From: a virus
Lineage: Duplodnaviria > Heunggongvirae > Uroviricota > Caudoviricetes
DNA length: 64,000 nt
Strand: one strand, 5' to 3'
IMG/VR virus record: IMGVR_UViG_3300035208_002606
Under the pieces are notes generated by a model, which saw nothing but the letters and a program-made list of their open reading frames with translations, ran no database searches and was not told the DNA's origin. Below, piece by piece: positions 21,859 through 64,000 of this stretch. Both the position numbers and the translations under genes were made by a program. How positions within the stretch are numbered: the first letter of the stretch is position 1; every line of letters starts with the position of its first letter.

Positions 21859-21863
21859 TTTTT

Positions 21864-22621: not shown

Positions 22622-22801
22622 CTTGACAGCGGCGTGGAAAGCAGACACGCAGTTCATAGTGTGGGAAAAACTTTGGGTTGCAAATGAAAGCATCCTCCCG
22701 AGGACAAGCCCACATGGAAAGGAATGGAAACATTCTGGAATGCGAGGAGTAAGGCAGTAATAAGGGCATCGTAGAGTCGGAGTAGCGTCCGAACTGTCAA
22801 G
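22622..22801 (+). ncRNA. family-E element
   Basis: cttgacag/ctgtcaag; gcgtg-gaaagcaga-cacgc; 3' hairpin tcgga-gtagcg-tccga. Confidence 0.4.
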
Positions 22802-22832
22802 TTTATTTTGCAATTTTAAGAAGGAGGAAAAA

Positions 22833-23258: not shown

Positions 23259-23420
23259 TGTAATAGACAGCAACATACGCTTCGAACGTATGAGTTCGGG
23301 TGCAAATCCTGATGGGAGTGCTAGCATTATTAGATGGTGATAGGGGGCAACACCAACAAGTGCAGAACAGTCCGCTTCGAAAGAAGAAAGGAACATGACG
23401 GCTTGCTAAAGTCCCCTTTA

Positions 23421-23493
23421 AGCGAATTTGATGTAACAGTTAGCATCTGACCTTGCCAAGGTTAGCGTAAGGGTGCGAATCCCTTAATTCGCT
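23421..23493 (+). tRNA. tRNA-Gly(GCC), non-canonical T-loop tgcgaat
   Basis: Acceptor gcgaatt/aattcgc, D-arm gatg-taacagttag-catc, loop ttgccaa. Confidence 0.5.
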
Positions 23494-23499
23494 CTTTAT

Positions 23500-23584
23500 G
23501 ACAAGATGGCAGAGCGGTTTATTGTGGCAGTCTCGAAAACTGTTGGGTGTAACAGCCCCGAAAGTTCGAATCTTTCTCTTGTCG
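23500..23584 (+). tRNA. tRNA-Ser(CGA), class II
   Basis: Acceptor gacaaga/tcttgtc+G73, AC arm gcagt-ctcgaaa-actgt, long variable arm, T-arm gaaag-ttcgaat-ctttc. Confidence 0.65.
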
Positions 23585-23590
23585 AAGTAT

Positions 23591-23664
23591 GCACTCGTAC
23601 CGCAGAGGTTTAACGGGGCGGTCTGCAAAACCGTTATTCATTGGTTCGAATCCAATCGAGTGCT
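23591..23664 (+). tRNA. tRNA-Cys(GCA)
   Basis: Acceptor gcactcg/cgagtgc, loop ctgcaaa, T-arm attgg-ttcgaat-ccaat. Confidence 0.65.
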
Positions 23665-23678
23665 TTTTGAAATTTTAT

Positions 23679-23746
23679 GCGGGTATCGTCCAATAGTAGG
23701 ACTTCAGATTTCCACTCTGAAAATCTCGGCGCACATCCGGGTATCC
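23679..23746 (+). tRNA. tRNA-Gly(TCC), non-canonical T-loop
   Basis: Acceptor gcgggta/tatccgc, D-arm gtcc-aatagta-ggac, AC arm tcaga-tttccac-tctga. Confidence 0.45.
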
Positions 23747-23763
23747 GCTCTTTTATTATTTTA

Positions 23764-23838
23764 TGGCCTTGTGGCGCAACTGGATAACGCGTTGACCTGT
23801 TAAGTCAAGGATTGGTCGTTCAAATCGACTCAAGGCCG
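23764..23838 (+). tRNA. tRNA-Asn(GTT)
   Basis: Acceptor ggccttg/caaggcc, AC arm ttgac-ctgttaa-gtcaa, T-loop ttcaaat; followed by T9 run. Confidence 0.65.
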
Positions 23839-23882
23839 TTTTTTTTTGACTTGAACCTTTATCAAAAACAATAAATATAGTT

Positions 23883-24875
23883 ATGAGAAAGGTTCGAAAC
23901 AAACATATATGTAAAAACTGTCAAAAAGAATTTATTCCCAAACAAGAAGCATTTTATAAATTTTGTTGTCAATCGTGTGCGGCTACTTATAATAATCAAC
24001 ATAGAATTTTTAAACCATCAGAAGACAAAAGAACAAAAATAATAAAATGCGCTAAATGTGGTAAAGAAATAGAAGTAAATATTAGGTCTGGTAAAAATAC
24101 AAAATGTGCCGATTGCAAAGAATATGTAAAAATTATCATCCCATCTACTAAAGGAAAAAGGTGGATAAAAAAGAAAACAATAAGAAATCGTAAAATTTAT
24201 CCATGTAAATATTGTGGGCAAGAAAAATGTTTACGGCCTGATATTTGTAAAAGATATCGTTTATTTCCTCGGCTTATAAAATATTTTGGATTGGACGAAA
24301 CCAAAATAGGAACAATTGAAATTTATGAAGAATTTGACCGCATAAGAAATAAACTCATTGAGGAATATTGGGACAAATTAACACCAATGGGTGATATTTG
24401 TAAACAATATAATTATTATGATAATGTTAGTAATTTTGCCTTTATTTTTAAATACCTAGACATCCCAAAAAGAACCCTTTCCGAAGCAGTAAGATTAAAT
24501 ATCAAAAATGGCAAATGCGTATCAACCCAAATAAACAACCAACGACCATATAAACACGGTTGGCACACTACTTGGGATAACAAACAGGTTTTTTACAGAA
24601 GTTCTTACGAATTAGATTATGCAAAAGAACTAGACGAACAAAAAATAGAATACAAAATGGAAAATCTTCGAATCCTTTATTGGGATAGCCAAAGACAAAT
24701 ACAACGAGTGGCAATTCCCGACTTTTATTTACCCAAGCAAAATAAAATAGTAGAAATAAAAAGTAAATTTACTTATAACGAACAAAATATGAAAGATAAA
24801 TTTAAATTTTATAAAGAACATGGATATAAAGTTAAACTAATTTTAGAACATAAAGAAATATTTATAGATTCATAA
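23883..24875 (+). CDS. PD-(D/E)XK-family endonuclease with N-terminal zinc-finger region (paralog of 20722-21783)
   Basis: Same C-terminal block ...YKHGWHTTWDNK...RVAIPDFYLPKQNKIVEIKS; CxxC pairs. Confidence 0.5.
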   Translation: MRKVRNKHICKNCQKEFIPKQEAFYKFCCQSCAATYNNQHRIFKPSEDKRTKIIKCAKCGKEIEVNIRSGKNTKCADCKEYVKIIIPSTKGKRWIKKKTIRNRKIYPCKYCGQEKCLRPDICKRYRLFPRLIKYFGLDETKIGTIEIYEEFDRIRNKLIEEYWDKLTPMGDICKQYNYYDNVSNFAFIFKYLDIPKRTLSEAVRLNIKNGKCVSTQINNQRPYKHGWHTTWDNKQVFYRSSYELDYAKELDEQKIEYKMENLRILYWDSQRQIQRVAIPDFYLPKQNKIVEIKSKFTYNEQNMKDKFKFYKEHGYKVKLILEHKEIFIDS

Positions 24876-24889
24876 TATGTTTTTATGTC

Positions 24890-24973
24890 GCTGAAGTGGT
24901 GGAAAGGTTTACACGCCGTCTTGAGGTGGCGGTGTCGAAAGGCATGAGCGTTCGAATCGCTCCTTCAGCACCA
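24890..24973 (+). tRNA. tRNA-Leu(GAG), class II, CCA encoded
   Basis: Acceptor gctgaag/cttcagc, loop ttgaggt, T-arm gagcg-ttcgaat-cgctc. Confidence 0.65.
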
Positions 24974-25096
24974 ATGTAATATTAATGAATGGTGATAAGC
25001 GAATGGTCGCCAGGTCGCACCTGAGTAGGTTCGATTCCTACGATTGCCGTGGTCGGTGCGGGGTTCGATTCCCCAATCGCCATTCATTCTTTTTAT

Positions 25097-25169
25097 GGCA
25101 AGGTCGCTTACGTGGTCATAGCGTCCCGCTGAAGACGGGAAAATGGGTGTTCGATTCACCCCCTTGCCA
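25097..25169 (+). tRNA. tRNA-Phe(GAA)
   Basis: Acceptor ggcaagg/ccttgcc, AC arm tcccg-ctgaaga-cggga, T-arm gggtg-ttcgatt-caccc. Confidence 0.65.
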
Positions 25170-25203
25170 TCGTCTATTTTACTAAATACTGTTAGAGGAC
25201 GAT

Positions 25204-25704
25204 ATGAAATTTAGAAAAGTAGAAGAATTATCCGATATCGAAATGATGAATAAAACTTCACGCCCTGATGATTATACATCGGTAACGACAAAGTTTATTC
25301 TTAGCACATTCAAACCCGAACAAGGTTTGACTTTCTTGGATTACGGAGCAGGAAAGAAGGCTACCCAAACAAAAAAATTATTGGAAGCAGGATACGATGT
25401 TACTGCTTATGAAATGGGTGGCAACGTAACTGAATTACATGATAAAAACGCATTAAATAAAAAATACGATGTCGCCTTCGCCTCTAATGTTTTGAATGTT
25501 CAACCAACAATGACATTAATCCGTCAAATGCTTGTAGAAATGAGCCTATCTTCAAAAAAATATATCATTATGAACTACCCAAGTTCACCTAGAAAGTTTA
25601 GAGACCATTTTATCAACAACAAAGAAATGAAAAAAATTATCGAAGATAACCTTGAGGGGGAAGTTAAAGTTTACCCCAACACAATTTTCGTTTATCAAAA
25701 GTAA
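25204..25704 (+). CDS. small class I SAM-dependent methyltransferase-like protein
   Basis: LTFLDYGAGKK motif I, acidic YE post-I, DVAFASNVLN motif; embedded in tRNA cluster. Confidence 0.5.
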   Translation: MKFRKVEELSDIEMMNKTSRPDDYTSVTTKFILSTFKPEQGLTFLDYGAGKKATQTKKLLEAGYDVTAYEMGGNVTELHDKNALNKKYDVAFASNVLNVQPTMTLIRQMLVEMSLSSKKYIIMNYPSSPRKFRDHFINNKEMKKIIEDNLEGEVKVYPNTIFVYQK

Positions 25705-25716
25705 TTCAAATTTTTT

Positions 25717-25799
25717 GCCGGGGTGGTGTAATGGCAGACACAGCAGACTCAAAATCTGCCGCTCGTATGGGCGTGTGGGTTCAACTCCCTCTCCCGGCA
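25717..25799 (+). tRNA. tRNA-Leu(CAA), class II
   Basis: Acceptor gccgggg/tcccggc, D-arm gtgt-aatggcag-acac, loop ctcaaaa; paralog of tRNA at 29184. Confidence 0.6.
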
Positions 25800-25806
25800 T
25801 TTTCAT

Positions 25807-25877
25807 GGAGTCGTATTTCAACGGAAGAAGGGCTGACTCTTAATCAGTAGATGTGGGTTCGATTCCCGCCGACTTCA
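25807..25877 (+). tRNA. tRNA-Lys(CTT)
   Basis: Acceptor ggagtcg/cgacttc, AC arm gctga-ctcttaa-tcagt, T-arm gtggg-ttcgatt-cccgc. Confidence 0.5.
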
Positions 25878-25892
25878 TTTGCAATTTTATAT

Positions 25893-25963
25893 GGGTCTAT
25901 ATGTCAACGGTAGACGAGTGGGCCTTTAACCCAAAGATGGGGGTTCGATTCCCTCTAGACTCA
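25893..25963 (+). tRNA. tRNA-Lys(TTT)
   Basis: Acceptor gggtcta/tagactc, loop cctttaa, T-arm ggggg-ttcgatt-ccctc. Confidence 0.5.
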
Positions 25964-25971
25964 TTTTTTAT

Positions 25972-26044
25972 GCCCTGTTAGTTCAATTGGACAGAACACA
26001 TCCCTACGAAGGATAAAATGGGGATTCAAATTCCTCACGGGGTA
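25972..26044 (+). tRNA. tRNA-Arg(ACG)
   Basis: Acceptor gccctgt/acggggt, D-arm gttc-aattggaca-gaac, loop ctacgaa, T-loop ttcaaat. Confidence 0.6.
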
Positions 26045-26067
26045 CTTTCTAAAAAATAAATAATAGT

Positions 26068-26385
26068 ATGCAAAAGAAGGTATATCTATTATGGTGGATT
26101 TTATTCGTCAATATCTTGGATATAATCGTAACCTATTATGCATTTCATAACGAATTGCCCGTAAAAGAAATAGGCCCATTGGGGGCAAGCAACTCCGCAC
26201 TCATCTTCGGGTCATTGTTTAATTTGTTTGTTATTTCCCTTTGTTATTATATTGTTAAAACATACAAAAAAACAAAGGCACTAATGTTCAGAATTTTTTC
26301 AGGATTGATTCTTTTTTGGGCAGTATTCGATACCGCCGTAATCATCAATAATTTTTGGGTGATTCTTCAAGTCCTGCGGGGTTAA
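26068..26385 (+). CDS. small integral membrane protein
   Basis: 105 aa, three hydrophobic segments. Confidence 0.4.
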   Translation: MQKKVYLLWWILFVNILDIIVTYYAFHNELPVKEIGPLGASNSALIFGSLFNLFVISLCYYIVKTYKKTKALMFRIFSGLILFWAVFDTAVIINNFWVILQVLRG

Positions 26386-26451
26386 TTCAGCGGCTAGAAT
26401 GTCGGTCCTACAAACCGAACATCGGGGGTTCGAGTCCCTCACCCCGCACCA
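26376..26451 (+). tRNA. tRNA-Val(TAC), CCA encoded
   Basis: Acceptor gcggggt/accccgc, AC arm tcggt-cctacaa-accga, T-arm ggggg-ttcgagt-ccctc. Confidence 0.6.
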
Positions 26452-26469
26452 TTTTTCACTAAATAACAG

Positions 26470-27049
26470 TATGAAGTTCAAAATCATGGAATACAACAAA
26501 GACATTTACAATCAGCGTCCCGACACTTCGGGAAAGTTCAACAGGGGTGCTTATCGTGAGCCTACATTCAACAGGGAGAAGGATTACAAAGAATCGAAAG
26601 CATCTGAATTGGAAGTGCGTGAGTATTTTATTTCCAAGGGGTTCGAGTTCGTGAAGGAAGGCGGCATCATGTACGATGCCATGTTCAAGTGTACGAAGGA
26701 GCCTTTTAATCTTGAAGGTTGGGAAGTCAAGAAATATTGGACTGCCGAAGTCAAGGAAAGTTTCAAATCGCAACTCACGGGAAATGTCCCGATAGAATAT
26801 CAACAGCACGGGCATCCGACAGGAGTGGCGCAGACACAGGCAGATTTTTGGGTTGAAAAAATTCACGAGCCTAGCGGAAAAATATCGTTCGTGATAATGT
26901 GGACGAAAGACCTGAGAAAAATGATAGCAGAGAAAAAATATTTCAGGACTGCCTCAGGCGGCGACCCCGGAAGCGAAAGTTTGGTCTATCTTTTTAAAGT
27001 AGATGTGTTCAAACAACACGGAAAAATCCTAGACATTAAGACTTATTAG
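26470..27049 (+). CDS. hypothetical protein (MKFKIME start)
   Basis: ORF; first in-frame ATG at 26399 overlaps the tRNA, so start placed at MKFK ATG. Confidence 0.45.
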
Positions 27050-27143
27050 GGAAGATGGCAGAGCGGTTTAATGCATCTGCCTTGAAAGCAGACAAGGGTG
27101 CTAATACCATCCTTCAGGGGTTCGAATCCCTTTCTTCCCGCCA
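27049..27143 (+). tRNA. tRNA-Ser(TGA), class II, CCA encoded
   Basis: Acceptor gggaaga/tcttccc+G, AC arm tctgc-cttgaaa-gcaga. Confidence 0.65.
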
Positions 27144-27146
27144 TAT

Positions 27147-27231
27147 GAAAAGATGGCAGAGTGGACGATTGCATCCGCTTGGAAAGCGGAAGGGCATAAC
27201 AGCCTCAGAGGTTCGAATCCTCTTCTTTTCG
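27147..27231 (+). tRNA. tRNA-Ser(GGA), class II
   Basis: Acceptor gaaaaga/tcttttc+G, AC arm tccgc-ttggaaa-gcgga, T-arm agagg-ttcgaat-cctct. Confidence 0.65.
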
Positions 27232-27237
27232 TTTTAC

Positions 27238-27325
27238 GGTGAGTTGGCAGAGCGGTTGAATGCGGCATCCTGCTAAGATGTTGGGTGTAACAGCCCCGCA
27301 AGTTCGAATCTTGCACTCGCCGCCA
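27238..27325 (+). tRNA. tRNA-Ser(GCT), class II, CCA encoded
   Basis: Acceptor ggtgagt/actcgcc+G, loop ctgctaa, T-arm gcaag-ttcgaat-cttgc. Confidence 0.65.
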
Positions 27326-27329
27326 TTAC

Positions 27330-27403
27330 GCCCGTGTAGCCTAAGGGATGAGGCAACTGACTTCTAATCAGTTCTTATGGGAGTTCGAGTCTCTCCACGG
27401 GTG
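27330..27403 (+). tRNA. tRNA-Arg(TCT)
   Basis: Acceptor gcccgtg/cacgggt, D-arm gcct-aagggatg-aggc, AC arm actga-cttctaa-tcagt. Confidence 0.6.
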
Positions 27404-27411
27404 CTTGTATA

Positions 27412-27481
27412 GGGCCGTAACCCAATGGTTAGGGTCGTGGGCTTTGAACCCATTTATCTTCGTTCGAGTCGAAGCGGCCCT
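27412..27481 (+). tRNA. tRNA-Gln(TTG)
   Basis: Acceptor gggccgt/gcggccc, loop ctttgaa, T-arm cttcg-ttcgagt-cgaag. Confidence 0.55.
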
Positions 27482-27491
27482 GCATTATTTT

Positions 27492-27664
27492 ATCGACAGC
27501 GGCGTGGAAGGACACGCGAACCGAATCATGGGGGCAACGGACACCTGGCATGCCCCGATATCGCCCAGGATGTTTACTCCTAAATCGGGTAGGGCGAAGC
27601 ATAACACGCGGCGTTGCGGGACGCCGACCCATGATGTAGCCGGTATCAAGCCCGACCTGTCGAT
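27492..27664 (+). ncRNA. family-E element
   Basis: atcgacag/ctgtcgat; gcgtg-GAAGGA-cacgc; internal atcatgggg/ccccatgat helix; abuts tRNA-Arg(CCT). Confidence 0.4.
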
Positions 27665-27671
27665 TTTATTA

Positions 27672-27742
27672 AGCCCCTGTAGCGTAATGATAGCGCACAG
27701 GTTTCCTAAACCTACGGTCTAAGTTCGATTCTTAGCAGGGGT
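27672..27742 (+). tRNA. tRNA-Arg(CCT)
   Basis: Acceptor gcccctg/caggggt, loop ttcctaa, T-arm ctaag-ttcgatt-cttag; abuts 3' end of an E element. Confidence 0.45.
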
Positions 27743-27753
27743 ACGAATTATTT

Positions 27754-27826
27754 TAGCCGTTTGGTGAAATAGTTATCACATCTGCCTCTGAAGCAGATAT
27801 TCTTAGTGCGAATCTAGGAGCGGCTG
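27754..27826 (+). tRNA. tRNA-Gln(CTG), non-canonical T-loop tgcgaat
   Basis: Acceptor agccgtt/agcggct, D-arm gtga-aatagtta-tcac, AC arm tctgc-ctctgaa-gcaga. Confidence 0.5.
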
Positions 27827-27832
27827 TTTATA

Positions 27833-27906
27833 TTGGGTGGTAAGTCAATAGAAGACGCGTAGTATCGGAAACTACGAGTTGCGAGTGCAAGTCTCGCTCA
27901 CCCAAT
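27833..27906 (+). tRNA. tRNA-Pro(CGG), non-canonical T-loop tgcaagt
   Basis: Acceptor ttgggtg/cacccaa, AC arm gtagt-atcggaa-actac, T-arm gcgag-tgcaagt-ctcgc. Confidence 0.5.
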
Positions 27907-27989
27907 TTTTATGTTGACCGTAGCCAAGACAGCGAACGGCGATGCAGAACGCATCAGTTTAGGGGTGCAACCCCCTTCGGTCAACTCAT

Positions 27990-28061
27990 GGTGAGTGTAG
28001 TTCAACAGTAGAACGCCCGACTGTGAATCGGGGAATGCAAGGGCAGCACTTGTCACTCACC
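27990..28061 (+). tRNA. tRNA-His(GTG) with encoded G-1
   Basis: g|gtgagtg...cactcac|c (G-1:C73), D-arm gttc-aacagta-gaac, AC arm cccga-ctgtgaa-tcggg; unusual T-loop. Confidence 0.55.
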
Positions 28062-28067
28062 CCAAAT

Positions 28068-28150
28068 GCTGATATGGTGTAATTTGGTAGCCACGCTAGT
28101 CTTAGGAACTAGTCCTTAATTGGGTGTGGGTTCGAGTCCCTCTATCAGCA
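28068..28150 (+). tRNA. tRNA-Leu(TAG), class II
   Basis: Acceptor gctgata/tatcagc, AC arm ctagt-cttagga-actag. Confidence 0.6.
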
Positions 28151-28157
28151 CATTTAT

Positions 28158-28244
28158 GTCGATATGGCGCAAAGGGAGACGCAACGGTTTCAGAAACCGT
28201 CCGTTGGTCAACAGCGGCTATAGGTTCAAATCCTATTATCGGCA
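28158..28244 (+). tRNA. tRNA-Leu(CAG), class II
   Basis: Acceptor gtcgata/tatcggc, AC arm acggt-ttcagaa-accgt, T-arm atagg-ttcaaat-cctat. Confidence 0.65.
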
Positions 28245-28451
28245 CTTGTATTTTAATTTTTAAGGGAGGATATATGAAATGAAAATGAAAATCGAAACTC
28301 GTGGGACTCTTCCAAAGCGGAGTAGGAGACATTGGATTTTTACAATTTTTCCATCAATCTCATTATGTTATATTAAGCATGATAGTTTCAACATAGATAT
28401 GCGTTGGTTATTTTGGTCGTTAGAAATTCTTTTATTTTTTAAGGAGCAAGA

Positions 28452-29198
28452 ATGAAGAAAGATGACATCGGTAACAGAATGAAATCTGCATACGAGAACA
28501 GGACACGAATCTGTCTTCCCCGTAGGACAAACATCATCATCCGTATTGACGGCAAGGCGTTCCACTCTTATACCCGTGGAATGAAGAGGCCGTTTGATGA
28601 TGGGTTCATGGGAGACATGGATACAACTGCGGCCTACCTCTGCAAGAACATTCAGGGGGCTAAATTTGCGTTCGTGCAGTCAGACGAAATTTCAATCCTT
28701 CTGACCGACTACGACAAAATCACAACGGACGCATGGTTCGACAACAACGTGCAAAAGATGGCAAGTGTGTCAGCAAGTATGGCAACGAGAGCCTTCAATG
28801 AGGCAAGAATGAATAGAATTATTCGAACAGGAGAGGGGGAAATGAAGTGGGCAGAGTTCGACAGCAGGGTATTCCAAATTCCTGAGTGGCACGAAGTCGA
28901 GAACTACTTCATTTGGAGACAGCAGGACTGCGTTCGCAACAGTATTCAATCTGTTGCTCAATCCCTCTACTCTCACAAGCAACTCAACGGCAAAAATACG
29001 AACGAGATGCAGGAAATGATTTTCCAAAAGGGAATCAATTGGAACGATTACGACCCCAAGTACAAGAGGGGTCGAGCAATTGTGAAAGAGGAATACATTG
29101 GCGATTCGGCAGTTCCGCGCCATCGTTGGAAGTCTCAAGGTTGCCCTGTTCTTACGCAAGCAAGAGACTTCATTAAGTTTACAGCCGGGATGGTGTAA
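28452..29198 (+). CDS. Thg1-like protein (tRNA-His guanylyltransferase family; 3'-5' nucleotide addition / tRNA 5'-end repair)
   Basis: TNIIIRIDGKAFHSYTRGMKRPFDDGFMGDMDTTA...FAFVQSDEISILL matches the Thg1/TLP catalytic core; 3' end overlaps tRNA-Leu(TAA) by ~15 nt. Confidence 0.7.
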   Translation: MKKDDIGNRMKSAYENRTRICLPRRTNIIIRIDGKAFHSYTRGMKRPFDDGFMGDMDTTAAYLCKNIQGAKFAFVQSDEISILLTDYDKITTDAWFDNNVQKMASVSASMATRAFNEARMNRIIRTGEGEMKWAEFDSRVFQIPEWHEVENYFIWRQQDCVRNSIQSVAQSLYSHKQLNGKNTNEMQEMIFQKGINWNDYDPKYKRGRAIVKEEYIGDSAVPRHRWKSQGCPVLTQARDFIKFTAGMV

Positions 29199-29269
29199 TG
29201 GTAGCCACAGCAGACTTAAAATTTGCCGCTCGTATGGGCGTGTGGGTTCAAGTCCCTCTCCCGGCACCA
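29184..29269 (+). tRNA. tRNA-Leu(TAA), class II, CCA encoded
   Basis: Acceptor gccggga/tcccggc, loop cttaaaa; near-duplicate of tRNA-Leu(CAA) at 25717. Confidence 0.65.
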
Positions 29270-29270
29270 C

Positions 29271-29345
29271 GGGTCAGTCCGTTAATGGTTAAACGGTTGG
29301 TCTCCAAAACCAATCCTGGAGGTTCGAATCCTTCCTGACCCGCCA
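29271..29345 (+). tRNA. tRNA-Trp(CCA), CCA encoded
   Basis: Acceptor gggtcag/ctgaccc, D-arm ccgt-taatggttaa-acgg, AC arm ttggt-ctccaaa-accaa. Confidence 0.7.
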
Positions 29346-29439: not shown

Positions 29440-30024
29440 ATGAAAGAATTAAACAACGAAACAATTATAGTAACAAGTAAAAAATTAACAAGAGATATTC
29501 GTAGACTTATCAGAAATGCACAAAAACAACACGATGAAAATATAAAAGAATGGAAAACCTCTCCATTTTATAAATTAAAGGCAGGATTACCCATAAAAGT
29601 AATAGGTGAAACAATAGGAGAAGGAATATTCAAATTAATGCTTAACCAATTAAAGATTAAATATAAAAAGAATCCAAATAATGATTTAATTATATATGAA
29701 GGCAACAAAGAAGAGTCTACAGAAATTAAATTTAGCACTAGGGGTAAAAAAAATAAAAACGGAAACTTCTGCATTTTATATAATCAATGTAGACTAGAGG
29801 AAAATGTTGACACTTTTCATTTTATGAATGTTTTTCCAGAAAATTATATTGATATTTGGAAAATTTCTAAACAAGAATTCGAAAAATATTTAGAATCACA
29901 CCCCAAAGAAAAAATTATTCCAAAAAGTTCAAAAATAAAAAATGAAAAATTTATTCAATTTAAAAATTTTAATGATACATGGGATTCTTCTGTTTTTCAT
30001 CATAAATATCGGATTATACTTTAA
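29440..30024 (+). CDS. hypothetical protein
   Basis: 194 aa ORF downstream of extended -10 promoter (29399-29404); ATGA-coupled to radical SAM gene. Confidence 0.45.
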   Translation: MKELNNETIIVTSKKLTRDIRRLIRNAQKQHDENIKEWKTSPFYKLKAGLPIKVIGETIGEGIFKLMLNQLKIKYKKNPNNDLIIYEGNKEESTEIKFSTRGKKNKNGNFCILYNQCRLEENVDTFHFMNVFPENYIDIWKISKQEFEKYLESHPKEKIIPKSSKIKNEKFIQFKNFNDTWDSSVFHHKYRIIL

Positions 30025-31250
30025 TGCACCTTCTTCTAATTGAACCTGATATTGATGTAATTTTGAAGCAGAAGAGTTTATTCAAAACAGAAAAGAAAAA
30101 GATTAGAGAATCAAAAGTTATTAAATACATCGCCCCAAATTTGGCAATGCTCAAATGGGCAACTTGGGCAGAAAATAACGGACATACTTATCAATATGTA
30201 ATAGGGAAAAAACATATTTTCCAAAAAGAACCCGACCTTATTTTGATAAGTTGCATATTTTCTTTTTACTCGAAAGAATATACAGACATCATTAATTATT
30301 ACAGAGAGACCTTTAGAAATGCCAAATTTATAATTGGCGGGGCATTTCCAACCCTCAATCCCGAATGGTTTAAAGCCAAATTTCCTTATGCCGAAATTCA
30401 TCAGGGTATTCGTCCCGAAATAGAAGACTTAGTTCCAAATTATGCAGTCACCCCTTGGTCAAAAAAAATCATCGGCTACGCAAGCCGTGGGTGTGTCAAC
30501 GCTTGCAAATACTGTGCCGTTTCCAAATTGGAAGGCAAAATGCGCTCTTTCCCGACAATCAGACCGATGATAGAAAAGGGAATAAAAGAAATCGGCAATC
30601 CCACAGGCATTGTTCTTTACGACAATAATTTTACCGCCCACGAATACTTCGACAATATTTGTGACGAGTTGGAAGAGTTTGGATTGCCCGTCGATATTCA
30701 CGGATTGCACGTTTCCGCTTTCAACGAACACCACGCCGAAAGATTTGCAAGGTTGAAATGGGGCGCACAGCACGAAGCAGGAACGGCATACATGCGATTC
30801 TCGTTCGACTTCGTGGGATATCAACCCCACATTCACAGGGCGTTAAAATTGGTGGAGAAACACAAAATCAAGGCGGCATTTTTTTGTTATATGCTCTTCA
30901 ATTGGGTTGACAGTCCCGATGATTTTTGGAAGCGCATCGTACAGGCACAGGAAATGACGGACGATGTCAGCAGAACCATTTTCCTGTTCCCCCAACGCTT
31001 TGAACCTCTCGACTCCCTAGAACGCAACAAGTTCGTAGGAACCAAATGGGACAAGGAGTTAGTCGCAGGGGTTGTTAAACTTTACACTTTCATGCACGGG
31101 TTCCTGCCCGTCACGACCTCTCACAATATCTTTAATTGGATTGGATATACGAAGGAAGAGTTCTTCGACAACGCAAGGAAATTCGCAACGGATAAAACCT
31201 TTAAACTTGTCAAGAAAAATGGGGACCCACCGAAGACCTTTAAATTGTAA
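30024..31250 (+). CDS. B12-binding-domain radical SAM protein
   Basis: CVNACKYC (Cx3Cx2C) radical SAM cluster motif after an N-terminal B12-binding-like domain. Confidence 0.65.
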   Translation: MHLLLIEPDIDVILKQKSLFKTEKKKIRESKVIKYIAPNLAMLKWATWAENNGHTYQYVIGKKHIFQKEPDLILISCIFSFYSKEYTDIINYYRETFRNAKFIIGGAFPTLNPEWFKAKFPYAEIHQGIRPEIEDLVPNYAVTPWSKKIIGYASRGCVNACKYCAVSKLEGKMRSFPTIRPMIEKGIKEIGNPTGIVLYDNNFTAHEYFDNICDELEEFGLPVDIHGLHVSAFNEHHAERFARLKWGAQHEAGTAYMRFSFDFVGYQPHIHRALKLVEKHKIKAAFFCYMLFNWVDSPDDFWKRIVQAQEMTDDVSRTIFLFPQRFEPLDSLERNKFVGTKWDKELVAGVVKLYTFMHGFLPVTTSHNIFNWIGYTKEEFFDNARKFATDKTFKLVKKNGDPPKTFKL

Positions 31251-57307: not shown

Positions 57308-57710
57308 AGTTCACACCGAGGAGCGGTACGATAATGGCGGGTTTGATGAAGTCTCATTGAGCAATTACATCACGGATTTTACTGAAGTCACTCAGGAAGA
57401 GTATCAGGCTCTCAGAGAGTTCACCTTCGAATGGAATCACAAAGCCAAACGGGGAGACGGGCAACGCCTTATCTTAGTCGAGGACGAATCAGAAAAACTC
57501 CCAAAGACGATTGCCGAAGCGATGGAGTTCGCCGTCAAGAAAAAGGCAGAATGGGCAGCAGAACAAAAACGGTTGGAGAAAGAACGCCTAAAGCGTCAGC
57601 GCAAGGCCGAAGAAAAGAAAATGAAAAAGAAGGATAGCGAAGTTGCCGCTCTCGCCGCCAAGGTGGAATTCTACAAGGCCAAGATTAAGGAACTGAAAGG
57701 AGAGAAGTAA
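57288..57710 (+). CDS. hypothetical protein with Lys/Glu-rich C-terminus
   Basis: Start MKIALVRVH. Confidence 0.4.
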   Translation: MKIALVRVHTEERYDNGGFDEVSLSNYITDFTEVTQEEYQALREFTFEWNHKAKRGDGQRLILVEDESEKLPKTIAEAMEFAVKKKAEWAAEQKRLEKERLKRQRKAEEKKMKKKDSEVAALAAKVEFYKAKIKELKGEK

Positions 57711-57892
57711 TGAAAATTTTAGCCTGTCCGTTCTGCGGATGCGAAGAGGGAGAAATTGTTATCATCGATTGCGCTGACCGTGAAGGAACTCCGCAAGTTG
57801 TCAAGTGTGTTGAATGCGGAGCGCAGGGGCCGTTTGGGTACACAATGGAAAAGGCAATTGCATATTGGGAAGAGAGATTTAAGGAGAAATAA
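57710..57892 (+). CDS. Lar-family-like zinc-ribbon protein (possible restriction alleviation)
   Basis: LACPFCGCEEGEIV...VKCVECG pattern resembling Lar family. Confidence 0.4.
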   Translation: MKILACPFCGCEEGEIVIIDCADREGTPQVVKCVECGAQGPFGYTMEKAIAYWEERFKEK

Positions 57893-58483: not shown

Positions 58484-58834
58484 ATGAATTGTGCAAGATG
58501 CGGTCAATCAGATGAAACCCAAATGGTTATGTGGCAAGAAATAAGGTCAGAAAAATGGCAAAGAATTATGGATAAACTTTGCAACTACTGTATTTGGGAA
58601 TTAAGACATAATAAAAATTATAAAAATATACGCATTGTTAAAAAAGAAACAAAAGAGATTTTAATTCGTGAAATTGATAAACTATGGACGGGTCTTTGTA
58701 AAACGCATAAGAAAACGGAAAGAGAAAAATTTATTTCAAGAGTACTTCGTATTGTCGAGCGACCATATACCCTAACTGTTTCTTTTCTTGTTGAATTGCG
58801 AAACGATTTAAAAAAGGAGATTACTAAATGCTAG
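58484..58834 (+). CDS. zinc-binding protein
   Basis: CARCGQ...CNYC. Confidence 0.4.
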   Translation: MNCARCGQSDETQMVMWQEIRSEKWQRIMDKLCNYCIWELRHNKNYKNIRIVKKETKEILIREIDKLWTGLCKTHKKTEREKFISRVLRIVERPYTLTVSFLVELRNDLKKEITKC

Positions 58835-59190
58835 CATCAATTCAAAGAATTCTTGAAGTCAAACCTGTCGAGAACGCTGACTCGCTCGACAAGGTTTATG
58901 TTTTGGGTTGGCAAGTGGTGGTGAAGAGGGGAGAATTTAAGCCAAATGACCTGTGCGTATATATCGGTATCGATACTATCGTACCCGCCAGACCTGAGTT
59001 CGCATTTCTTGCGAAGGAAAAATTTCGAATTCGTACCAAAAAATTTAGAGGGGCATTATCACAAGGATTGTGTTTACCTTTAACTGTGTTGAAAAATTAT
59101 GGACAATTTTTAAATGAAAATGGGGATTTATTTTTTATCCCCAATCAAGATATTGAAAAATTAGTAGTACAACACATAGAAAAACCATAA
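58828..59190 (+). CDS. hypothetical protein, possibly N-terminal module of the downstream ligase-like enzyme
   Basis: 120 aa ORF immediately upstream of nucleotidyltransferase ORF. Confidence 0.4.
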   Translation: MLASIQRILEVKPVENADSLDKVYVLGWQVVVKRGEFKPNDLCVYIGIDTIVPARPEFAFLAKEKFRIRTKKFRGALSQGLCLPLTVLKNYGQFLNENGDLFFIPNQDIEKLVVQHIEKP

Positions 59191-59202: not shown

Positions 59203-59931
59203 ATGAAAATAAAAATTAAAGAAGGATTATCTTTAGATATTATACTTAACACCAAACACTACGAGAAGCCTGTTCCTAACGAAGGATTTAATCAGGGAGA
59301 CACGAAGGGCAATTGGCCCCCGTACTTCCCGCACACGGACGAAGAGCGGATTCAGAATGTTCCTGAGATTCTTGACGAACTGAGGGGCAAGTCCTACATC
59401 ATCACCGAAAAGTGTGACGGAACTTCCTGCACGATTTTCTACAACCGTGGTGAGTTCGGGGTCTGCTCCCGCAATTTCGAGAAGAAGGATTCCGAAGGGT
59501 CGGCATATTGGCAAGTCGTTCGCAAGTACGACTTGGAGAACAAACTTAAAAAATTCGGCCCGAATATTGCGATTCAGGGGGAATTGTGCGGTCCAGGGAT
59601 TCAGAAGAACAAGTTGGGATTGAAGGAACTCGACCTGTTCGTGTTCGACATTTACGATATTGACGATGGAAAGTACATGGCATGGCCCAAGCAGAACAGT
59701 TACATTCTTTCCCTAGGGCTTACCAAAGTTCCCATTGTTGAGTTCGGAGAGGGGTTCCATTACACCTTGGAAGAACTCTTGGAGAAAGCGAAAGGTCAGT
59801 ACGCAGGAACGAACAACCACCGAGAGGGGATTGTTGTTCGGGCAATGTACGGAGACTTTTCCGAAAAGATGCGGAGCCGTATTAGTTTCAAGGTTCTTAA
59901 CAATGAATTTCTGCTGAAGGAAGGGGAGTAA
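59203..59931 (+). CDS. RNA-ligase-like covalent nucleotidyltransferase (second ligase)
   Basis: ITEKCDGTS motif I (KxDG), GELCG motif III, REGIVVRA motif IV, SFKVLN motif V. Confidence 0.55.
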   Translation: MKIKIKEGLSLDIILNTKHYEKPVPNEGFNQGDTKGNWPPYFPHTDEERIQNVPEILDELRGKSYIITEKCDGTSCTIFYNRGEFGVCSRNFEKKDSEGSAYWQVVRKYDLENKLKKFGPNIAIQGELCGPGIQKNKLGLKELDLFVFDIYDIDDGKYMAWPKQNSYILSLGLTKVPIVEFGEGFHYTLEELLEKAKGQYAGTNNHREGIVVRAMYGDFSEKMRSRISFKVLNNEFLLKEGE

Positions 59932-60177
59932 ACGATAAATAATATCGGAGCAAGACAATGATGATAATCAGGCATATGCTTTACAAAGAGGTCGAGGATT
60001 ACGATGCTTACGACTTCTACCTGATGAAATCCCGTTGTACTTGCGAGAAAACTTTTAAGACCATCGGCATCGAAAAGGGAGCGAACAGTCAGGAGATTCG
60101 CAAGCAGTTCAAGCAGACAATTCCAACAAACAACATCCACCCGAAACAAGTGGTATCGTTGTACTCAGGAGGCTGAA

Positions 60178-60465
60178 ATGGGAACCTATCAAGAGCGCGG
60201 CGAAGAACGGAAACCGATGTGGATTGTGTACACGACAGAGGGCATCGAAGAGTTCAGCAAGTCGATTCTCAAGGCCGCTGAAATGGAAGGCATCAGTCCA
60301 ATACTGACTAGGGAACTAGTTGCAGTCAAGCACTATCCTAGCACCTTCTATCTTATCAACCTGAGCATCGACCAAGTTTTGAAGAGCCTAGGGGAGACCA
60401 TGCCCCATCTGCTTCCCCCTATCAGGGAAAGCAAACCTAGAGAGAAGAAGATAGCAAAGAAATAA
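60178..60465 (+). CDS. hypothetical protein
   Basis: 95 aa ORF. Confidence 0.4.
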   Translation: MGTYQERGEERKPMWIVYTTEGIEEFSKSILKAAEMEGISPILTRELVAVKHYPSTFYLINLSIDQVLKSLGETMPHLLPPIRESKPREKKIAKK

Positions 60466-60667
60466 AAGAAGGAGAGTTAAGAATGATACGAACAATAATA
60501 GGTGCAATGTTTAAAGTCTTCCCGTTCGTTTTGGTATTATCTTTATACCTTGACACATTTAATCTTCCATGTTGGTTAGAACTAATAATCTTTCTTGGTA
60601 TGATTCTTTTCAATGCTGTAATTATGAGCATTGGTGAATATATAGAATCAAATTAGGAGAGTGAAAA

Positions 60668-60919
60668 ATGAAAGATAAAAAACCTGTATTCTGTGTAAAA
60701 TGTAAGTATTCAAGGGGCATACGGTTCGGAGGCGCGGGCATAGAAGAATGTCACCATCCCGAAAATTGTGATACGTATAACAACTATGCTAGGCCGTATA
60801 AGCAATATCTAAATGACCCTAGAGACTTGAATAAGAATAACGATTGTAAATGGTACACCCCTAGGCTGAAAATACTTACCACGATTGTTAAATTTTTTAA
60901 AACAAGGAGTCAAGAATGA
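60668..60919 (+). CDS. Cys-rich small protein
   Basis: CVKCKYS...CHHPENCD. Confidence 0.4.
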   Translation: MKDKKPVFCVKCKYSRGIRFGGAGIEECHHPENCDTYNNYARPYKQYLNDPRDLNKNNDCKWYTPRLKILTTIVKFFKTRSQE

Positions 60920-61218
60920 GCAAAGAAATGGTAAAGAGGATTTTCAGAATTTTCCTGATGGTGGTATTCGTCTTTTTCTTTTTCGGTTGTGACGAAATCG
61001 AAAGGATGGAAAAGGAACAGGAACAGGAAAAGATTCAGATGGAGAAGAACGCCTCATGGCTTTCCGTCCAAATCCTTTTAAAAAAAGACGGCATAAAATT
61101 TTATCTTGTCAAGGATACTAGAGAAAATGTAGACTATCTTCTCGTTTATTCTCCCGATAACGACACCATGTCCCTCACCAAAATGGAGAAGAACGAAAAG
61201 GAAGAATACGGGTACTAA
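60916..61218 (+). CDS. secreted/membrane small protein
   Basis: N-terminal hydrophobic segment. Confidence 0.4.
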   Translation: MSKEMVKRIFRIFLMVVFVFFFFGCDEIERMEKEQEQEKIQMEKNASWLSVQILLKKDGIKFYLVKDTRENVDYLLVYSPDNDTMSLTKMEKNEKEEYGY

Positions 61219-61427
61219 GGTTATCCCAAGAACCCAACCATGAGCAGTATCAACCCTAGAATGAACTGCAAGAACTTAACTTCTATATCTTCAAGCGTGA
61301 AAAGTCTGTCCCTTATCAGCAGGGTGAATATCGAGGACTTGCACAGCACCGCCCCCGTCAAAACCAAAATACCCTTAACTAACAATATTGAAATGTCCAT
61401 ATTACTATTTATCCCTAGGAGCAAGGT

Positions 61428-61973
61428 ATGAGTTGCATTTGGGTCAATTTTGACAGCCAAAAATACTTGGAATATTTCCCCCGTACGAGTTCGTGGGTGA
61501 ACTCCTACCGCCCTTATCTCCTGCAAGCGTTGGAGTTGACAGGGGGCGGGAATGTCCTTGAAATGGGAGTCGGGAATAATTCCTCACCCTTTCTAAGGCG
61601 ATACTGCAAGGAGCATGGTCGTGCGCTTTATTCCTACGATAATGACAGAGAGTGGGCGCATAAGTTCGATGCCTGTTGTGTTGGAGAACAGGCCGAAGAT
61701 TGGGAACGTAGCGATTACGCCATGCGTAACTACACCGTGGCATTCATCGACCACTCGCCACCCTTCCACCGTCCGATTGCAGTCCGAAACCTCTTGAACA
61801 AGGCTAGCATCTTTGTCATTCACGACACTCAGCCCTCACACAATTTTGTCTACAATCTCGACACCATCTTTTCGCTGTTTAAATATGTTGACCATTACTG
61901 CGAAGAAGAATCTTGGGCAACTATATGCTCCAACTTCTATGATGTAACGAGGCCTCCACATGAAAGACGATAA
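61428..61973 (+). CDS. putative SAM-dependent methyltransferase-like protein
   Basis: VLEMGVGNNSSPF Gly-rich motif I-like; RBS aggagcaaggtATG. Confidence 0.4.
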   Translation: MSCIWVNFDSQKYLEYFPRTSSWVNSYRPYLLQALELTGGGNVLEMGVGNNSSPFLRRYCKEHGRALYSYDNDREWAHKFDACCVGEQAEDWERSDYAMRNYTVAFIDHSPPFHRPIAVRNLLNKASIFVIHDTQPSHNFVYNLDTIFSLFKYVDHYCEEESWATICSNFYDVTRPPHERR

Positions 61974-62220
61974 GTACAAATTGTGGAAGGTGCTACATCC
62001 TCAAGAATTCCATTGTCATTACTGCCGCAAGTCTACAACATTGCCGGGTTGTCCTTTATTAGTAAAGGGGGTGGTTACTCGTTATAAAGACATTGATTAT
62101 AAGAATTGCAGGGAGTTTTTAAAACCCGAAAATTATAGAGTGCCTGATGTCATGCCCCGTTTGGGCGATGCGGGAATTTTTTACACTCCATATATTCCTG
62201 TGCAAATAATAAAGAAATGA
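61960..62220 (+). CDS. hypothetical protein
   Basis: 86 aa, CHYC. Confidence 0.4.
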   Translation: MKDDKYKLWKVLHPQEFHCHYCRKSTTLPGCPLLVKGVVTRYKDIDYKNCREFLKPENYRVPDVMPRLGDAGIFYTPYIPVQIIKK

Positions 62221-62450
62221 TACCCGAATCCTGTCCCCTTTCCAATAAAGAAAGATTCAAGGTGGTGATGAACCTGAAATGTAAACTGCAAGGGCAAAGT
62301 GCTGTGGAGTTCCAAACAGAGTGTAAGAACTGCTCTTTTAATTATTACAATTACCAAAAAAAAATAATAGAAAGATTAATAAGTGAGTTGGCTAAGAATG
62401 ATAAAGCCCCTAAAAAGATTGTGAGCCTTAGTAAAGCGAGAAAGAAATGA
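62217..62450 (+). CDS. MIPxSCPL zinc-ribbon paralog 1
   Basis: MIPESCPLSNKE...C..C...C..C. Confidence 0.5.
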   Translation: MIPESCPLSNKERFKVVMNLKCKLQGQSAVEFQTECKNCSFNYYNYQKKIIERLISELAKNDKAPKKIVSLSKARKK

Positions 62451-62710
62451 TACCCCAATCCTGCCCCCTAAACGACAAAAGCAAGTTGTACGTCACCCTG
62501 CACACGGAGTGTAAGTTTACAAAAGAGGGAGAGGAACCCTTCACCGAAATGTGCAAGGGCTGCCCCTTCAACCCCGAAGTCATAGAGGAAAAACGAATGT
62601 CAGGACTGACAGTTAAAGACTATAAAAGTATTTTTGATGATTATCTAGGCCTTCTTTTCACACAAGAAGAAAAGAAACTCATAAAAGCAATAGCGGATAT
62701 GGACGAATGA
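62447..62710 (+). CDS. MIPxSCPL zinc-ribbon paralog 2
   Basis: MIPQSCPLNDKS. Confidence 0.5.
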   Translation: MIPQSCPLNDKSKLYVTLHTECKFTKEGEEPFTEMCKGCPFNPEVIEEKRMSGLTVKDYKSIFDDYLGLLFTQEEKKLIKAIADMDE

Positions 62711-62922
62711 TACCGAAAAACTGTAGCCTCACGAACAAGGAGAAACTCTATGTCATTCTCCATGCCGAGTGCAACTTTTATTTTGACAGCGACATGAACA
62801 CCGAAGCCTGTATAAAATGCCCCTTCAACGGGGCATTTTATTCAAAGATAGAAAGGCTAGCAAATCAGGGAGTAACCTTTGATGCCGAGACTCAATTCTA
62901 CCTGAAGGGGAGAAAGAAGTGA
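62707..62922 (+). CDS. MIPxSCPL zinc-ribbon paralog 3
   Basis: MIPKNCSLTNKE. Confidence 0.5.
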   Translation: MIPKNCSLTNKEKLYVILHAECNFYFDSDMNTEACIKCPFNGAFYSKIERLANQGVTFDAETQFYLKGRKK

Positions 62923-63167
62923 TACCCCAATCCTGCCCCCTGAGCGACAAAGATAAACTCAAAGTGGTGCTAAATTTAAAATGTTATTTTGCCCTTTCCA
63001 CCGATAAGCCTCTTAATGAATACGAAACTTGGTCTTGCAGGGGTTGTTCCTTTACTCGTACTTTTCAAGAATGGATGTTGGATAGATATAACGAAGGTAA
63101 GGTTTTTGACCACCAAACCACCAACTACATCAAAGAGTATCTTATTTTTAAAGGGAGAAAGAAGTGA
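62919..63167 (+). CDS. MIPxSCPL zinc-ribbon paralog 4
   Basis: MIPQSCPLSDKD. Confidence 0.5.
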   Translation: MIPQSCPLSDKDKLKVVLNLKCYFALSTDKPLNEYETWSCRGCSFTRTFQEWMLDRYNEGKVFDHQTTNYIKEYLIFKGRKK

Positions 63168-63415
63168 TACCCAAATCCTGCCCCCTGAACGACAAGTATA
63201 AGTTAAGGGCCAAACTTCATCAGGAGTGTATATTCGCAGGAACTCGTCTGCTAGACGGAGTAAATCTCTGTCAAGACTGCTACTATTACAAAAAGATGCA
63301 AGAAAGGTGTTATGAAGTAAATCCCGACAACATAAGAAAGACCCTAGAGGAACTGCGGAAAGACCGGGGGCTTCCCAACATTCCTATATATCCGCACCAC
63401 ACAAACAATAAATAA
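63164..63415 (+). CDS. MIPxSCPL zinc-ribbon paralog 5
   Basis: MIPKSCPLNDKY. Confidence 0.5.
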   Translation: MIPKSCPLNDKYKLRAKLHQECIFAGTRLLDGVNLCQDCYYYKKMQERCYEVNPDNIRKTLEELRKDRGLPNIPIYPHHTNNK

Positions 63416-63423
63416 GAGTAGGA

Positions 63424-64000
63424 TGAAATTTAAACTTGTAGAAGGCGTGTCCAATTTTAATAACTCCCTGCGGCAGGATGTCGTAGAGTTCTTCGAAGAG
63501 AAGTGGAAGGAGTGCAAACGAAAAAGAAAAGCGGGAACATGGGTATTCGACAAAACATACAAAGACGACAAAACAGGAAAAAATGTAGAGGTTGTCGTTA
63601 TTCTCCAAGCCAAAAGAGACCGATACACAAAGAACTCCCATGTTAAGTCGATGGTAAATGCCAATCAATACGGCAGTCTTGTCATGGCGTATATCTTTCT
63701 GAACCTGACGCAATTAGAAGACTTCAAGGCCAAATACGAAAGATACTATTCCATGCTGTCGTACCTTGAACACGAACTCACTCACATCAGCCAAAAAATA
63801 AACAAGTCGCTTCAGAACAGAAAAACCTCCTTTAAGTCATACATAAACACTCATGCCGATTGGCCCGTGGAAAAGGAAGCCGAATTGGTCTCGCTCTTCA
63901 GCCTGATAAAAAGATACACTCCCGTTTTTGCGTCACGATTTTTCTTCAGCCATGTTCCCTATTGGAACAACATAGGATTCGGGTATAAGACCTTCCTGAA
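63424..64000 (+). CDS. hypothetical protein (MKFKLVE start), 3' end outside window
   Basis: Open frame to window end; absent from ORF track because no stop. Confidence 0.45.

Follow-up and report, generated by a model that had tools for sequence, protein, structure and literature searches.

The stretch of DNA analysed here (the window, 64,000 nucleotides of the Caudoviricetes record IMGVR_UViG_3300035208_002606) belongs to a phage-like contig with a length of about 239 kb. The locus at positions 61960-63415 of its + strand is a co-directional, translationally coupled cassette array of six small genes. Five of them, A to E, are intact, and the sixth, ORF0, is a degenerate family member as judged by its sequence. 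The products have one common cysteine module at the N-terminus, followed by member-specific C-terminal tails, most of which are predicted to be helical. We tentatively read them as co-expressed modular adaptor or bait proteins, with a probability of about 0.4; confidence is high in the structural and evolutionary part of this reading and low in its functional part. The proteins form an undescribed orphan family of small modular proteins that is found only in phages. A portable head joined to very different tails is unusual in itself. It is also unusual that in some relatives the tails are in-frame, conserved copies of the capsid segment that triggers an abortive-infection protease and of the tail-sheath C-terminal domain. 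The genes of the array, with protein lengths in amino acids (aa), are:

61960-62220, + strand: ORF0, 86 aa, degenerate sixth member, ATGA overlap with A
62217-62450, + strand: member A, 77 aa, ATG start, ATGA overlap with ORF0; long, lysine-rich tail, predicted helical
62447-62710, + strand: member B, 87 aa, ATG start, ATGA overlap; acidic tail, predicted helical
62707-62922, + strand: member C, 71 aa, ATG start, ATGA overlap; tail GVTFDAETQFYLKGRKK
62919-63167, + strand: member D, 82 aa, GTG start, GTGA overlap; tail weakly like that of C
63164-63415, + strand: member E, 83 aa, GTG start, GTGA overlap; tail end RGLPNIPIYPHHTNNK

Reading of the sequence, together with the listing of open reading frames (ORFs), places five back-to-back ORFs of 71-87 aa on the + strand at 62217-63415. 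All five N-termini read (M/V)IP(E/Q/K)(S/N)C(P/S)L. Identity to the first member is 27-36%, and M1, I2, P3, C6, L8, K11, C22, C36 and C39 are invariant in the alignment, so that A-E align well past residue 12, with invariant residues out to C39. The common N-terminal module comprises about 42 residues (MIPxxCPLxDKxKL...C...CxxC), and its profile, run against the 64-kb window, matches exactly A-E with E-values of 1e-16 to 1e-20. The original prediction of five consecutive paralogs is thus confirmed by the ORF listing, the alignment and the profile matches. A-E are true tandem paralogs that stem from an old tandem duplication.

The prediction had counted five genes, and ORF0 adds the degenerate sixth. 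ORF0 has lost the MIPxxCPL start and the first cysteine and has kept DKYKLWKVLH. It matches the family member P0050 by BLASTP (E=1e-9) and tblastn (2.5e-6), the two having DKxKLWxxLH and the tail DAGIFYTPYIPVQI in common. Its fit to the family definition is partial, because the module profile finds it at E=0.14 only. The ortholog of ORF0 in the syntenic IMG/VR contig L019 (7036-7323) starts with MIPDKY. The C-terminal tail of ORF0, DAGIFYTPYIPVQIIKK, is similar to the conserved strand at the C-terminus of the T4-type major capsid protein, with weak matches to Pfam Gp23 (E=0.09) and to phrog_138 (E=0.6).

All five junctions of the array are 4-nt stop/start overlaps. Every one of them had been described as ATGA, which holds for ORF0/A, A/B and B/C; C/D and D/E read GTGA, because D and E start with GTG. 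A common sequence had likewise been said to precede each overlap. The 14-mer AAGAARTGATACCC is present at four of the five junctions and nowhere else in the window, a count that was reached in none of 100 shuffles; the B/C junction differs and reads GACGAATGATACCG in its place. Four junctions also carry a direct-repeat family of 82 nt (D1), centred on the gene starts:

62202-62283, + strand: junction repeat copy 1 (ORF0/A), D1 repeat with a Shine-Dalgarno-like stretch, the overlapping stop/start and the conserved first codons; 14-mer match
62432-62513, + strand: junction repeat copy 2 (A/B), D1 repeat; 14-mer match
62904-62985, + strand: junction repeat copy 3 (C/D), D1 repeat; 14-mer match
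63149-63230, + strand: junction repeat copy 4 (D/E), D1 repeat; 14-mer match

A junction block of about 45 nt is conserved at the nucleotide level in A, B, D and E; it comprises a Shine-Dalgarno-like GGAG/GAGAAAG as well as the stop/start overlap and codons 1-11. The repeated unit therefore does include the coupling signal, as had been proposed. Among B, D and E, the codons of identical residues are themselves identical in 22 of 26 cases within the first 11 codons, compared to 14 of 41 in the rest of the genes. For all pairs the corresponding counts are 43 of 71 and 69 of 156 (Fisher p=0.03, the pairs being non-independent). The codon usage of the genome (ATA 0.27, CCC 0.31, TCC 0.19) is too weakly biased to explain this excess. 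Taken with the gene-content differences and the mosaic B ortholog described below, the codon counts support nucleotide-level homogenisation, or a constraint on the coupling and initiation region, with recombination in that region as the route by which gene units come and go. The RKK ends of the tails are encoded by the ribosome-binding site of the next gene. The repeat clearly exemplifies a signal for translational coupling, and may at the same time serve as a site of recombination where gene units are gained and lost.

That the array is an assembly artefact, or a run of non-coding chance ORFs, is barely conceivable; the small size of the ORFs and nothing else speaks for it. The same contig (239,127-239,128 bp) is found in the JGI, Logan and ENA collections (ENA ERZ27247350 k141_2421955). 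The array genes were called by JGI, ENA and Logan, and member B is annotated at NCBI (MFA5031305.1). Orthologs of the array genes occur in more than 15 other contigs, with ratios of nonsynonymous to synonymous substitution (dN/dS) below 1. Collapse or expansion of the array during assembly is ruled out because the copies are too divergent at the DNA level, and Tandem Repeats Finder reports no DNA-level tandem array at the locus. The objection that the array might be an assembly product is thus removed by the three collections and the divergence of the copies, and the reading as chance ORFs is refuted by the three-source contig, the gene calls and the orthologs. The NCBI source label of the member B protein is a metagenome-assembled genome of a 'Patescibacteria group bacterium'. 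Because of the terminase, the 32 tRNA genes and the other phage genes, this is probably a phage contig that was binned into a bacterial genome.

The module had been taken for a zinc ribbon with spaced cysteine pairs. The zinc ribbon finds no support, and the cysteines are not arranged in spaced pairs. The cysteine pattern is C-x15-C-x13/17-C-x2-C (C6, C22, C36-x2-C39), with a single CxxC. An AlphaFold2 model calculated from a 64-sequence alignment has a pLDDT of 86 and consists of helices 10-19, 23-26 and 43-76, without strands; an earlier run with 14 sequences reached a pLDDT of 59 and was unusable. In the order of the chain, the model has an N-terminal loop with C6, the first helix, C22, the short second helix, a loop with C36 and C39, and the long third helix. 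A zinc ribbon would have two knuckles and a β-hairpin or three-stranded sheet instead of one CxxC and an all-helical chain, and zinc-ribbon families in Pfam, PHROG and NCBIfam are unmatched. The module is thus predicted to be helical. The four cysteines of the module are nearly invariant and, as this conservation suggests, most likely bind a single metal ion. No structural or sequence match was found among the solved structures of the PDB or the viral structures of BFVD.

The proteins are comparable to the Lar restriction-alleviation proteins (PF14354) in their length of about 60-90 aa, their four cysteines and their occurrence as phage accessory genes. However, Lar-type proteins have two CxxC knuckles (CPFC...CVEC), whereas the array members have two single cysteines and one CxxC, are predicted to be all-helical and are unmatched by zinc-ribbon models. 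A 60-aa two-knuckle zinc-ribbon protein that belongs to the Lar family by precomputed annotation (PF14354) is encoded in the window at 57710-57892.

The family is narrow. A word-indexed search of 5.8 billion proteins returned no more than 14 members, and five of these come from this contig. When 1.84 billion cluster representatives were searched exhaustively with a profile, 63 clusters passed the cut-off of E<=1e-3, all of them small proteins and nearly all 57-153 aa long. A second homolog search with the 64-sequence alignment added just five members. The module can be written as M-I-[PN]-K-x-C-P-L-x-D-K-x-K-L-x3-L-H-x2-C-(8-25)-C-x2-C-[SP]-[YF], followed by unrelated tails. It starts at residue 1 in most members and 3-35 residues further in for a few (P0035, P0052, P0065, P0066). 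A-E fit the family definition of an N-terminal module at the start of a protein of about 55-155 aa. The codons of Pro3, Cys6 and Pro7 vary synonymously across 38 members, and selection on the module therefore acts on the protein.

The module is absent from 50,697 GenBank phage records (tblastn). A search for its DNA pattern in 185,579 species-representative genomes of bacteria and archaea likewise found no occurrence. Positions 60000-64000 of the window have no megablast match among GenBank phages, and tblastn with members E, B and D against the same phages gave only noise (E>=2). A related-locus search in IMG/VR with the five-member alignment confirmed nothing. The module DNA pattern is present in three IMG/VR contigs, two of which (168,828 and 222,974 bp) have two arrays each, with 4-6 or more members. 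A metagenome scan added 18 loci. The family has been seen only in uncultured large phage-like contigs, several of them with T4-type genes. Scans of A-E and their neighbours against Pfam, PHROGs and NCBIfam found nothing credible, and no relative of the module could be detected among the curated libraries or the solved structures. Nothing relevant on capsid-fragment decoys, or on a described family of this kind, turned up in literature searches.

The selection acting on the genes was assessed from pairwise Nei-Gojobori estimates on few sequences, to which all dN/dS values given here belong. Of the five paralogs, all except D have orthologs at 55-80% identity in the related loci L001-L015. Those of A are in L001-L008 (63-64% identity, dN/dS 0.21). 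Member B, the most widespread subtype, has orthologs in L001, L010, L012 and L015 (55-80%, dN/dS 0.23-0.32). The orthologs of C are in L001, L009 and L012 (dN/dS 0.18-0.34), and those of E in L009 (75%) and L010 (57%). No clear ortholog of D was found elsewhere, the nearest sequence being L010_CD with 45% identity. Whole-gene dN/dS between orthologs is 0.15-0.50, and every scorable pair is below 1. Pooled over the orthologs, the module has a value of 0.16 and the tails have one of 0.43, with 0.86 as the highest for any region. Each copy is thus kept by purifying selection, the tails included, under weaker constraint. Synonymous sites between the paralogs of the window are saturated. The duplications are therefore old, and the divergence of the copies is old rather than fast. 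The array had been called rapidly diversifying, which is at odds with both the ortholog comparisons and the saturation. A dN/dS of 1 or more between orthologs, as expected of a family under arms-race positive selection, was not found for any pair. The B ortholog in L015 is a mosaic relative to B, with a synonymous divergence (dS) of 0.71 in the module and 0.12 in the tail.

The number of copies differs between related phages, from two to six members per locus. In the following examples 0 denotes ORF0:

window: members 0-A-B-C-D-E
L002: members 0-A-B-C
L001: members A-B-C
L009: members 0-C-E
L010: members B-C/D-E
L012: members B-C, directly 3' of the 181-aa gene that precedes the array in the window

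The loci differ by whole genes. The alignment breakpoints are at gene boundaries, mostly at gene starts, which lie within the junction repeats of about 45 nt. We infer that recombination between these repeats is the cause of the gain and loss of gene units.

The tails of the relatives give some clues to function. About a quarter of the 64 representatives have tails that are copies of conserved virion-protein segments (Pfam PF07068, PF17482; PHROG): eight match Gp23, the major head protein, and seven or eight match the tail sheath. Six capsid-tail members that were checked singly score 33-43 bits with Gp23 (gathering score 24.4) over profile positions 8-48. The sheath tails cover positions 14-101 of the 104 in Phage_sheath_1C; three scanned members score 20-24 bits, just below the cut-off of 26.9, and PHROG tail-sheath families match sheath-tail members at up to 2.9e-14. 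By tblastn, the capsid tails map inside the capsid gene in 2094 phage records and the sheath tails to the 3' end of the sheath gene in 1504, and the N-terminal module has no match in those records. The capsid-derived tails are copies, about 35-40 aa long, of a conserved N-terminal segment of gp23. In what we take to be the T4 gp23 sequence, this fragment aligns to residues 68-131, and the Gol region is presumably residues 93-122. According to a T4 review (PMC3012670), the Gol region, 29 residues long, is conserved more strongly than the rest of gp23 and acts through EF-Tu to activate the Lit protease. The gp23 segment with this region is copied as a tail in the six individually checked members, but is carried by none of the five intact members of the window; the weak match of ORF0 is to a different, C-terminal motif of gp23.

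The fusion genes are located among replication genes, away from the capsid and sheath genes. In L038 a capsid-fragment member follows a gp55-like sigma gene, and in L038 and L036 a gp47-like nuclease gene and a primase gene flank a sheath-fragment member, the functions of these neighbours being read from sequence motifs. In L033 and L025 the capsid- and sheath-fusion types are adjacent. We rejected the possibility that capsid or sheath genes have been interrupted and that the fusions represent their 3' halves, because the fusions have replication genes on both sides and the capsid fragments span no more than about 35-40 aa. Over long distances the fragments have a dN/dS of 0.18-0.31. The Gp23 and sheath models are unmatched by the intact members A-E. 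Member E, with GLPNIPIYP compared by eye to GIFYTPYIP, perhaps echoes the capsid C-terminal motif. There is a detection bias in all these comparisons, as only tails copied from highly conserved proteins are recognisable.

The reading of the array as a set of adaptors or baits may be put as follows. The proteins would be co-produced, either ahead of the late structural genes or independently of them. The common cysteine module would provide one shared activity or bind one shared partner, and each tail would confer a different binding specificity. By analogy with the relatives whose tails copy virion proteins, the targets would probably be found among the factors that bind structural or other conserved proteins of the phage, be they partners in assembly or sensors of the host. 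Members would be gained and lost by recombination between the junction repeats. If the tails are functional mimics, the family would give a direct handle on how phages manage the recognition of their own structural proteins by host sensors or assembly partners, and the array would be a natural, swappable bait library. The array alone is not surprising, since tandem small accessory genes are common in large phages, and in kind it is an ordinary accessory multigene family.

Several observations weigh against this proposal. The timing of expression is judged from the gene neighbourhood alone, the metal site from the four conserved cysteines alone, and the function of the module is supported by neither homology nor experiment. 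No conserved partner gene was found across the loci of the family. The tails of A-E match nothing in any library or elsewhere in the 84 kb of the contig searched, where the sole resemblance between tails is the weak one of C to D; extending the idea of virion mimicry to them is therefore an analogy. Furthermore, the virion-derived fragments are decaying in some lineages, with a short-range dN/dS of 0.5-0.8. In L025 the capsid-fragment member has a 17-aa deletion and the sheath-fragment member has a truncated C-terminal end. Such decay fits dispensable relics as well as it fits function.

The original prediction saw in the array the rapid diversification typical of effectors for host takeover or anti-defence; in this arms-race reading every copy would change fast in response to variable targets in the host. 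They are indeed accessory genes whose presence varies between close relatives. Their tails evolve faster than the module (0.43 compared to 0.16), and they lie in a block of small accessory genes together with the Lar-type gene at 57710-57892, which hints that the block holds anti-restriction-type genes. The internal proteins of T-even phages, diverse anti-restriction proteins with a common N-terminal signal, set a precedent (PMC3012670). However, all scorable ortholog pairs have a dN/dS below 1 (whole-gene values of 0.15-0.5), four of the five paralogs have recognisable orthologs, tails included, the saturated synonymous sites of the paralogs point to old divergence, and known anti-defence proteins are unmatched. 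An arms race is rather unlikely on this evidence. A role in morphogenesis, which we consider distinctly unlikely, would have the proteins cap or modulate assembly, decorate the particle or be packaged as internal proteins. They would dock on capsid or tail subunits by a tail mimicking a subunit interface, with the cysteine module being displayed or serving for targeting. The sheath tails would suit this, as they represent almost the whole C-terminal domain (Pfam 14-101 of 104), and the C-terminal domain of contractile sheaths mediates strand exchange between subunits. The capsid-derived tails are likewise conserved strands, and the T4 internal-protein loci, with a conserved N-terminal signal and a variable body, are again a precedent. 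The genes are nevertheless outside the structural modules, and the tails in the window are not virion-like. The sequence has no L/I-x-E site, which we take to be the prohead-protease type, directly after the module, and fragments of this kind would interfere with the phage's own assembly.

There is a small chance that the proteins are decoys or sponges for host immune sensors that recognise conserved virion epitopes. The cysteine module would keep the bound sensor inactive and the tails of A-E would mimic other triggers. The captured capsid segment, which maps to about residues 98-131 of the T4 sequence that we assume for gp23 and agrees with Pfam Gp23 positions 8-48, overlaps the Gol region, the Lit trigger and most conserved part of that protein (PMC3012670). 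The fusion genes, being among replication genes, are probably expressed before the late proteins, and the long-range dN/dS of the fragments (0.18-0.31) also agrees with a decoy function. On the other hand, the detection bias favours tails from highly conserved proteins, the fragments are decaying in some lineages and the intact members of the window have no similarity to virion proteins. We know of no sensor for the sheath C-terminal domain. With an equally small chance, the whole family could form an early-made arsenal of epitope mimics, in which copied pieces of the most conserved proteins of the phage are baits that pre-occupy or disarm host sensors, the cysteine module inactivates the sensors and the decoys are swapped by recombination at the junction repeat. 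Under that same joint reading the pieces would include the capsid Gol region, the capsid C-terminal strand, the sheath C-terminal domain and unrecognised pieces in the tails of A-E. It is improbable that the proteins are nucleic-acid-binding regulators, that is, small metal-finger proteins controlling transcription or translation, with tails for oligomerisation. Their small size and coupled expression, the conserved basic residues K4, K11 and K13 beside the cysteines, the lysine- and arginine-rich C-termini of A, C and D and a long modelled helix that is possibly a coiled coil would agree with such a role. But the RKK ends may be a by-product of the next gene's ribosome-binding site, the tail of B is acidic, and no similarity to a DNA- or RNA-binding fold was found. 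The least probable of the functional readings, to which we give hardly any weight, is an array of precursors of ribosomally synthesised and post-translationally modified peptides (RiPPs), in which a variable core would follow a conserved leader. It might be suggested by the row of small ORFs that agree at the N-terminus and vary at the C-terminus, as well as by a radical SAM gene in the window at 30024-31250. The cysteines, however, are in the conserved part and not in the variable one, and the tails are long, charged, helical in prediction and under purifying selection. There is no modifying enzyme that is adjacent or co-varies across the loci, the neighbours differ, and the radical SAM gene is 31 kb away. 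The RiPP precursor array was rejected on the grounds of the missing co-conserved adjacent enzyme and of the tails being charged helices under purifying selection.

Known phage systems resemble the adaptor or bait array only in part. The closest analogy is provided by the internal-protein (IP) loci of T-even phages, which are T4-type small genes with a conserved N-terminal signal, a diverse remainder and a variable gene set. The T-even capsid targeting sequence has about 10 residues, is devoid of cysteines and is removed by the prohead protease. In contrast, the array has a four-cysteine module of about 42 residues that is predicted to be folded, starts with MIPKxCPL and is not directly followed by an L/I-x-E site, the motif again being the one we presume. 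No similarity to the internal-protein families of PHROG was found. IPI* of T-even phages is an anti-restriction protein, and IP products combine a conserved N-terminal targeting signal with a diverse body (PMC3012670). RiPP clusters such as those of the prochlorosins are also rows of small ORFs with a conserved N-terminal and a variable C-terminal part. Unlike them, the array has no adjacent maturation enzymes, its cysteines are in the conserved part, and its tails are long, predicted to be helical and conserved between orthologs. In the hyperplastic accessory regions of T4-like phages, small ORFs likewise overlap and run in one direction, in blocks whose content varies from one close relative to the next. 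The homing endonuclease gene beside one related array (L016 4670-5356, GIY-YIG by eye) adds to this likeness; it adjoins a six-member array in a 168-kb IMG/VR phage contig. The array block differs from these regions because it consists of just one multigene family, whose arrays have 4-6 or more members each, and because it has a recombination-prone junction repeat.

The array is situated within a long co-directional block of small genes, and is flanked by two conserved genes:

61428-61973, + strand: upstream neighbour, 181 aa, conserved; flanks the array in the window, L001-L006 and L012-L014
63423-64000, ending about 148 nt past the window, + strand: downstream neighbour, 241 aa, conserved, with a HELTH (HExxH) motif; flanks the array in the window, L001, L009 and L010

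Scans of the family libraries gave no match for either protein. The downstream gene is followed in L001, L009 and L019 by a further small HExxH protein, 130-141 aa long. A perfect 13-nt inverted repeat, ATACCCGAATCCT / AGGATTCGGGTAT at 62220-62232 and 63974-63986, connects the start of member A with the downstream HExxH gene and is probably due to chance. No terminator-like site was found on the + strand between 57 and 64 kb, and scans for sigma-70 promoters, intrinsic terminators and the T4 late promoter (TATAAATA) were uninformative.

The contig encodes a large terminase, an RNA ligase, two CCA-adding enzymes, a DNA ligase, a radical SAM protein and 32 tRNA genes. The tRNA genes are on the + strand at 17352-29345, interspersed with small ORFs, and read codons of 20 amino acids. 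The two CCA-adding enzymes (tRNA nucleotidyltransferases) are adjacent, overlapping paralogs beside the tRNA block, at 12898-14286 and 14283-15374. The RNA ligase is present as two ORFs, one with the N-terminal PHA02142-type domain (58828-59190) and one with the RNA_ligase domain (59203-59931), whereas L002 has both domains in a single ORF of 333 aa; the two-ORF arrangement could be a split gene, a frameshift or a pseudogene. About 410 bp of the window (60486-60898) are missing from the otherwise collinear L001 and L002. This insert carries a hydrophobic ORF of 57 aa (60483-60656) and most of a cysteine-rich ORF of 83 aa (60668-60919), which is unrelated to the array family. About 6-9 kb past the end of the window, the same contig (L011, 16547-20252) has at least nine small ORFs of 68-101 aa, several of them overlapping. 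Some of these match the cysteine-module profile weakly (E 0.015-0.5), and the run may be a second, distant multigene family.

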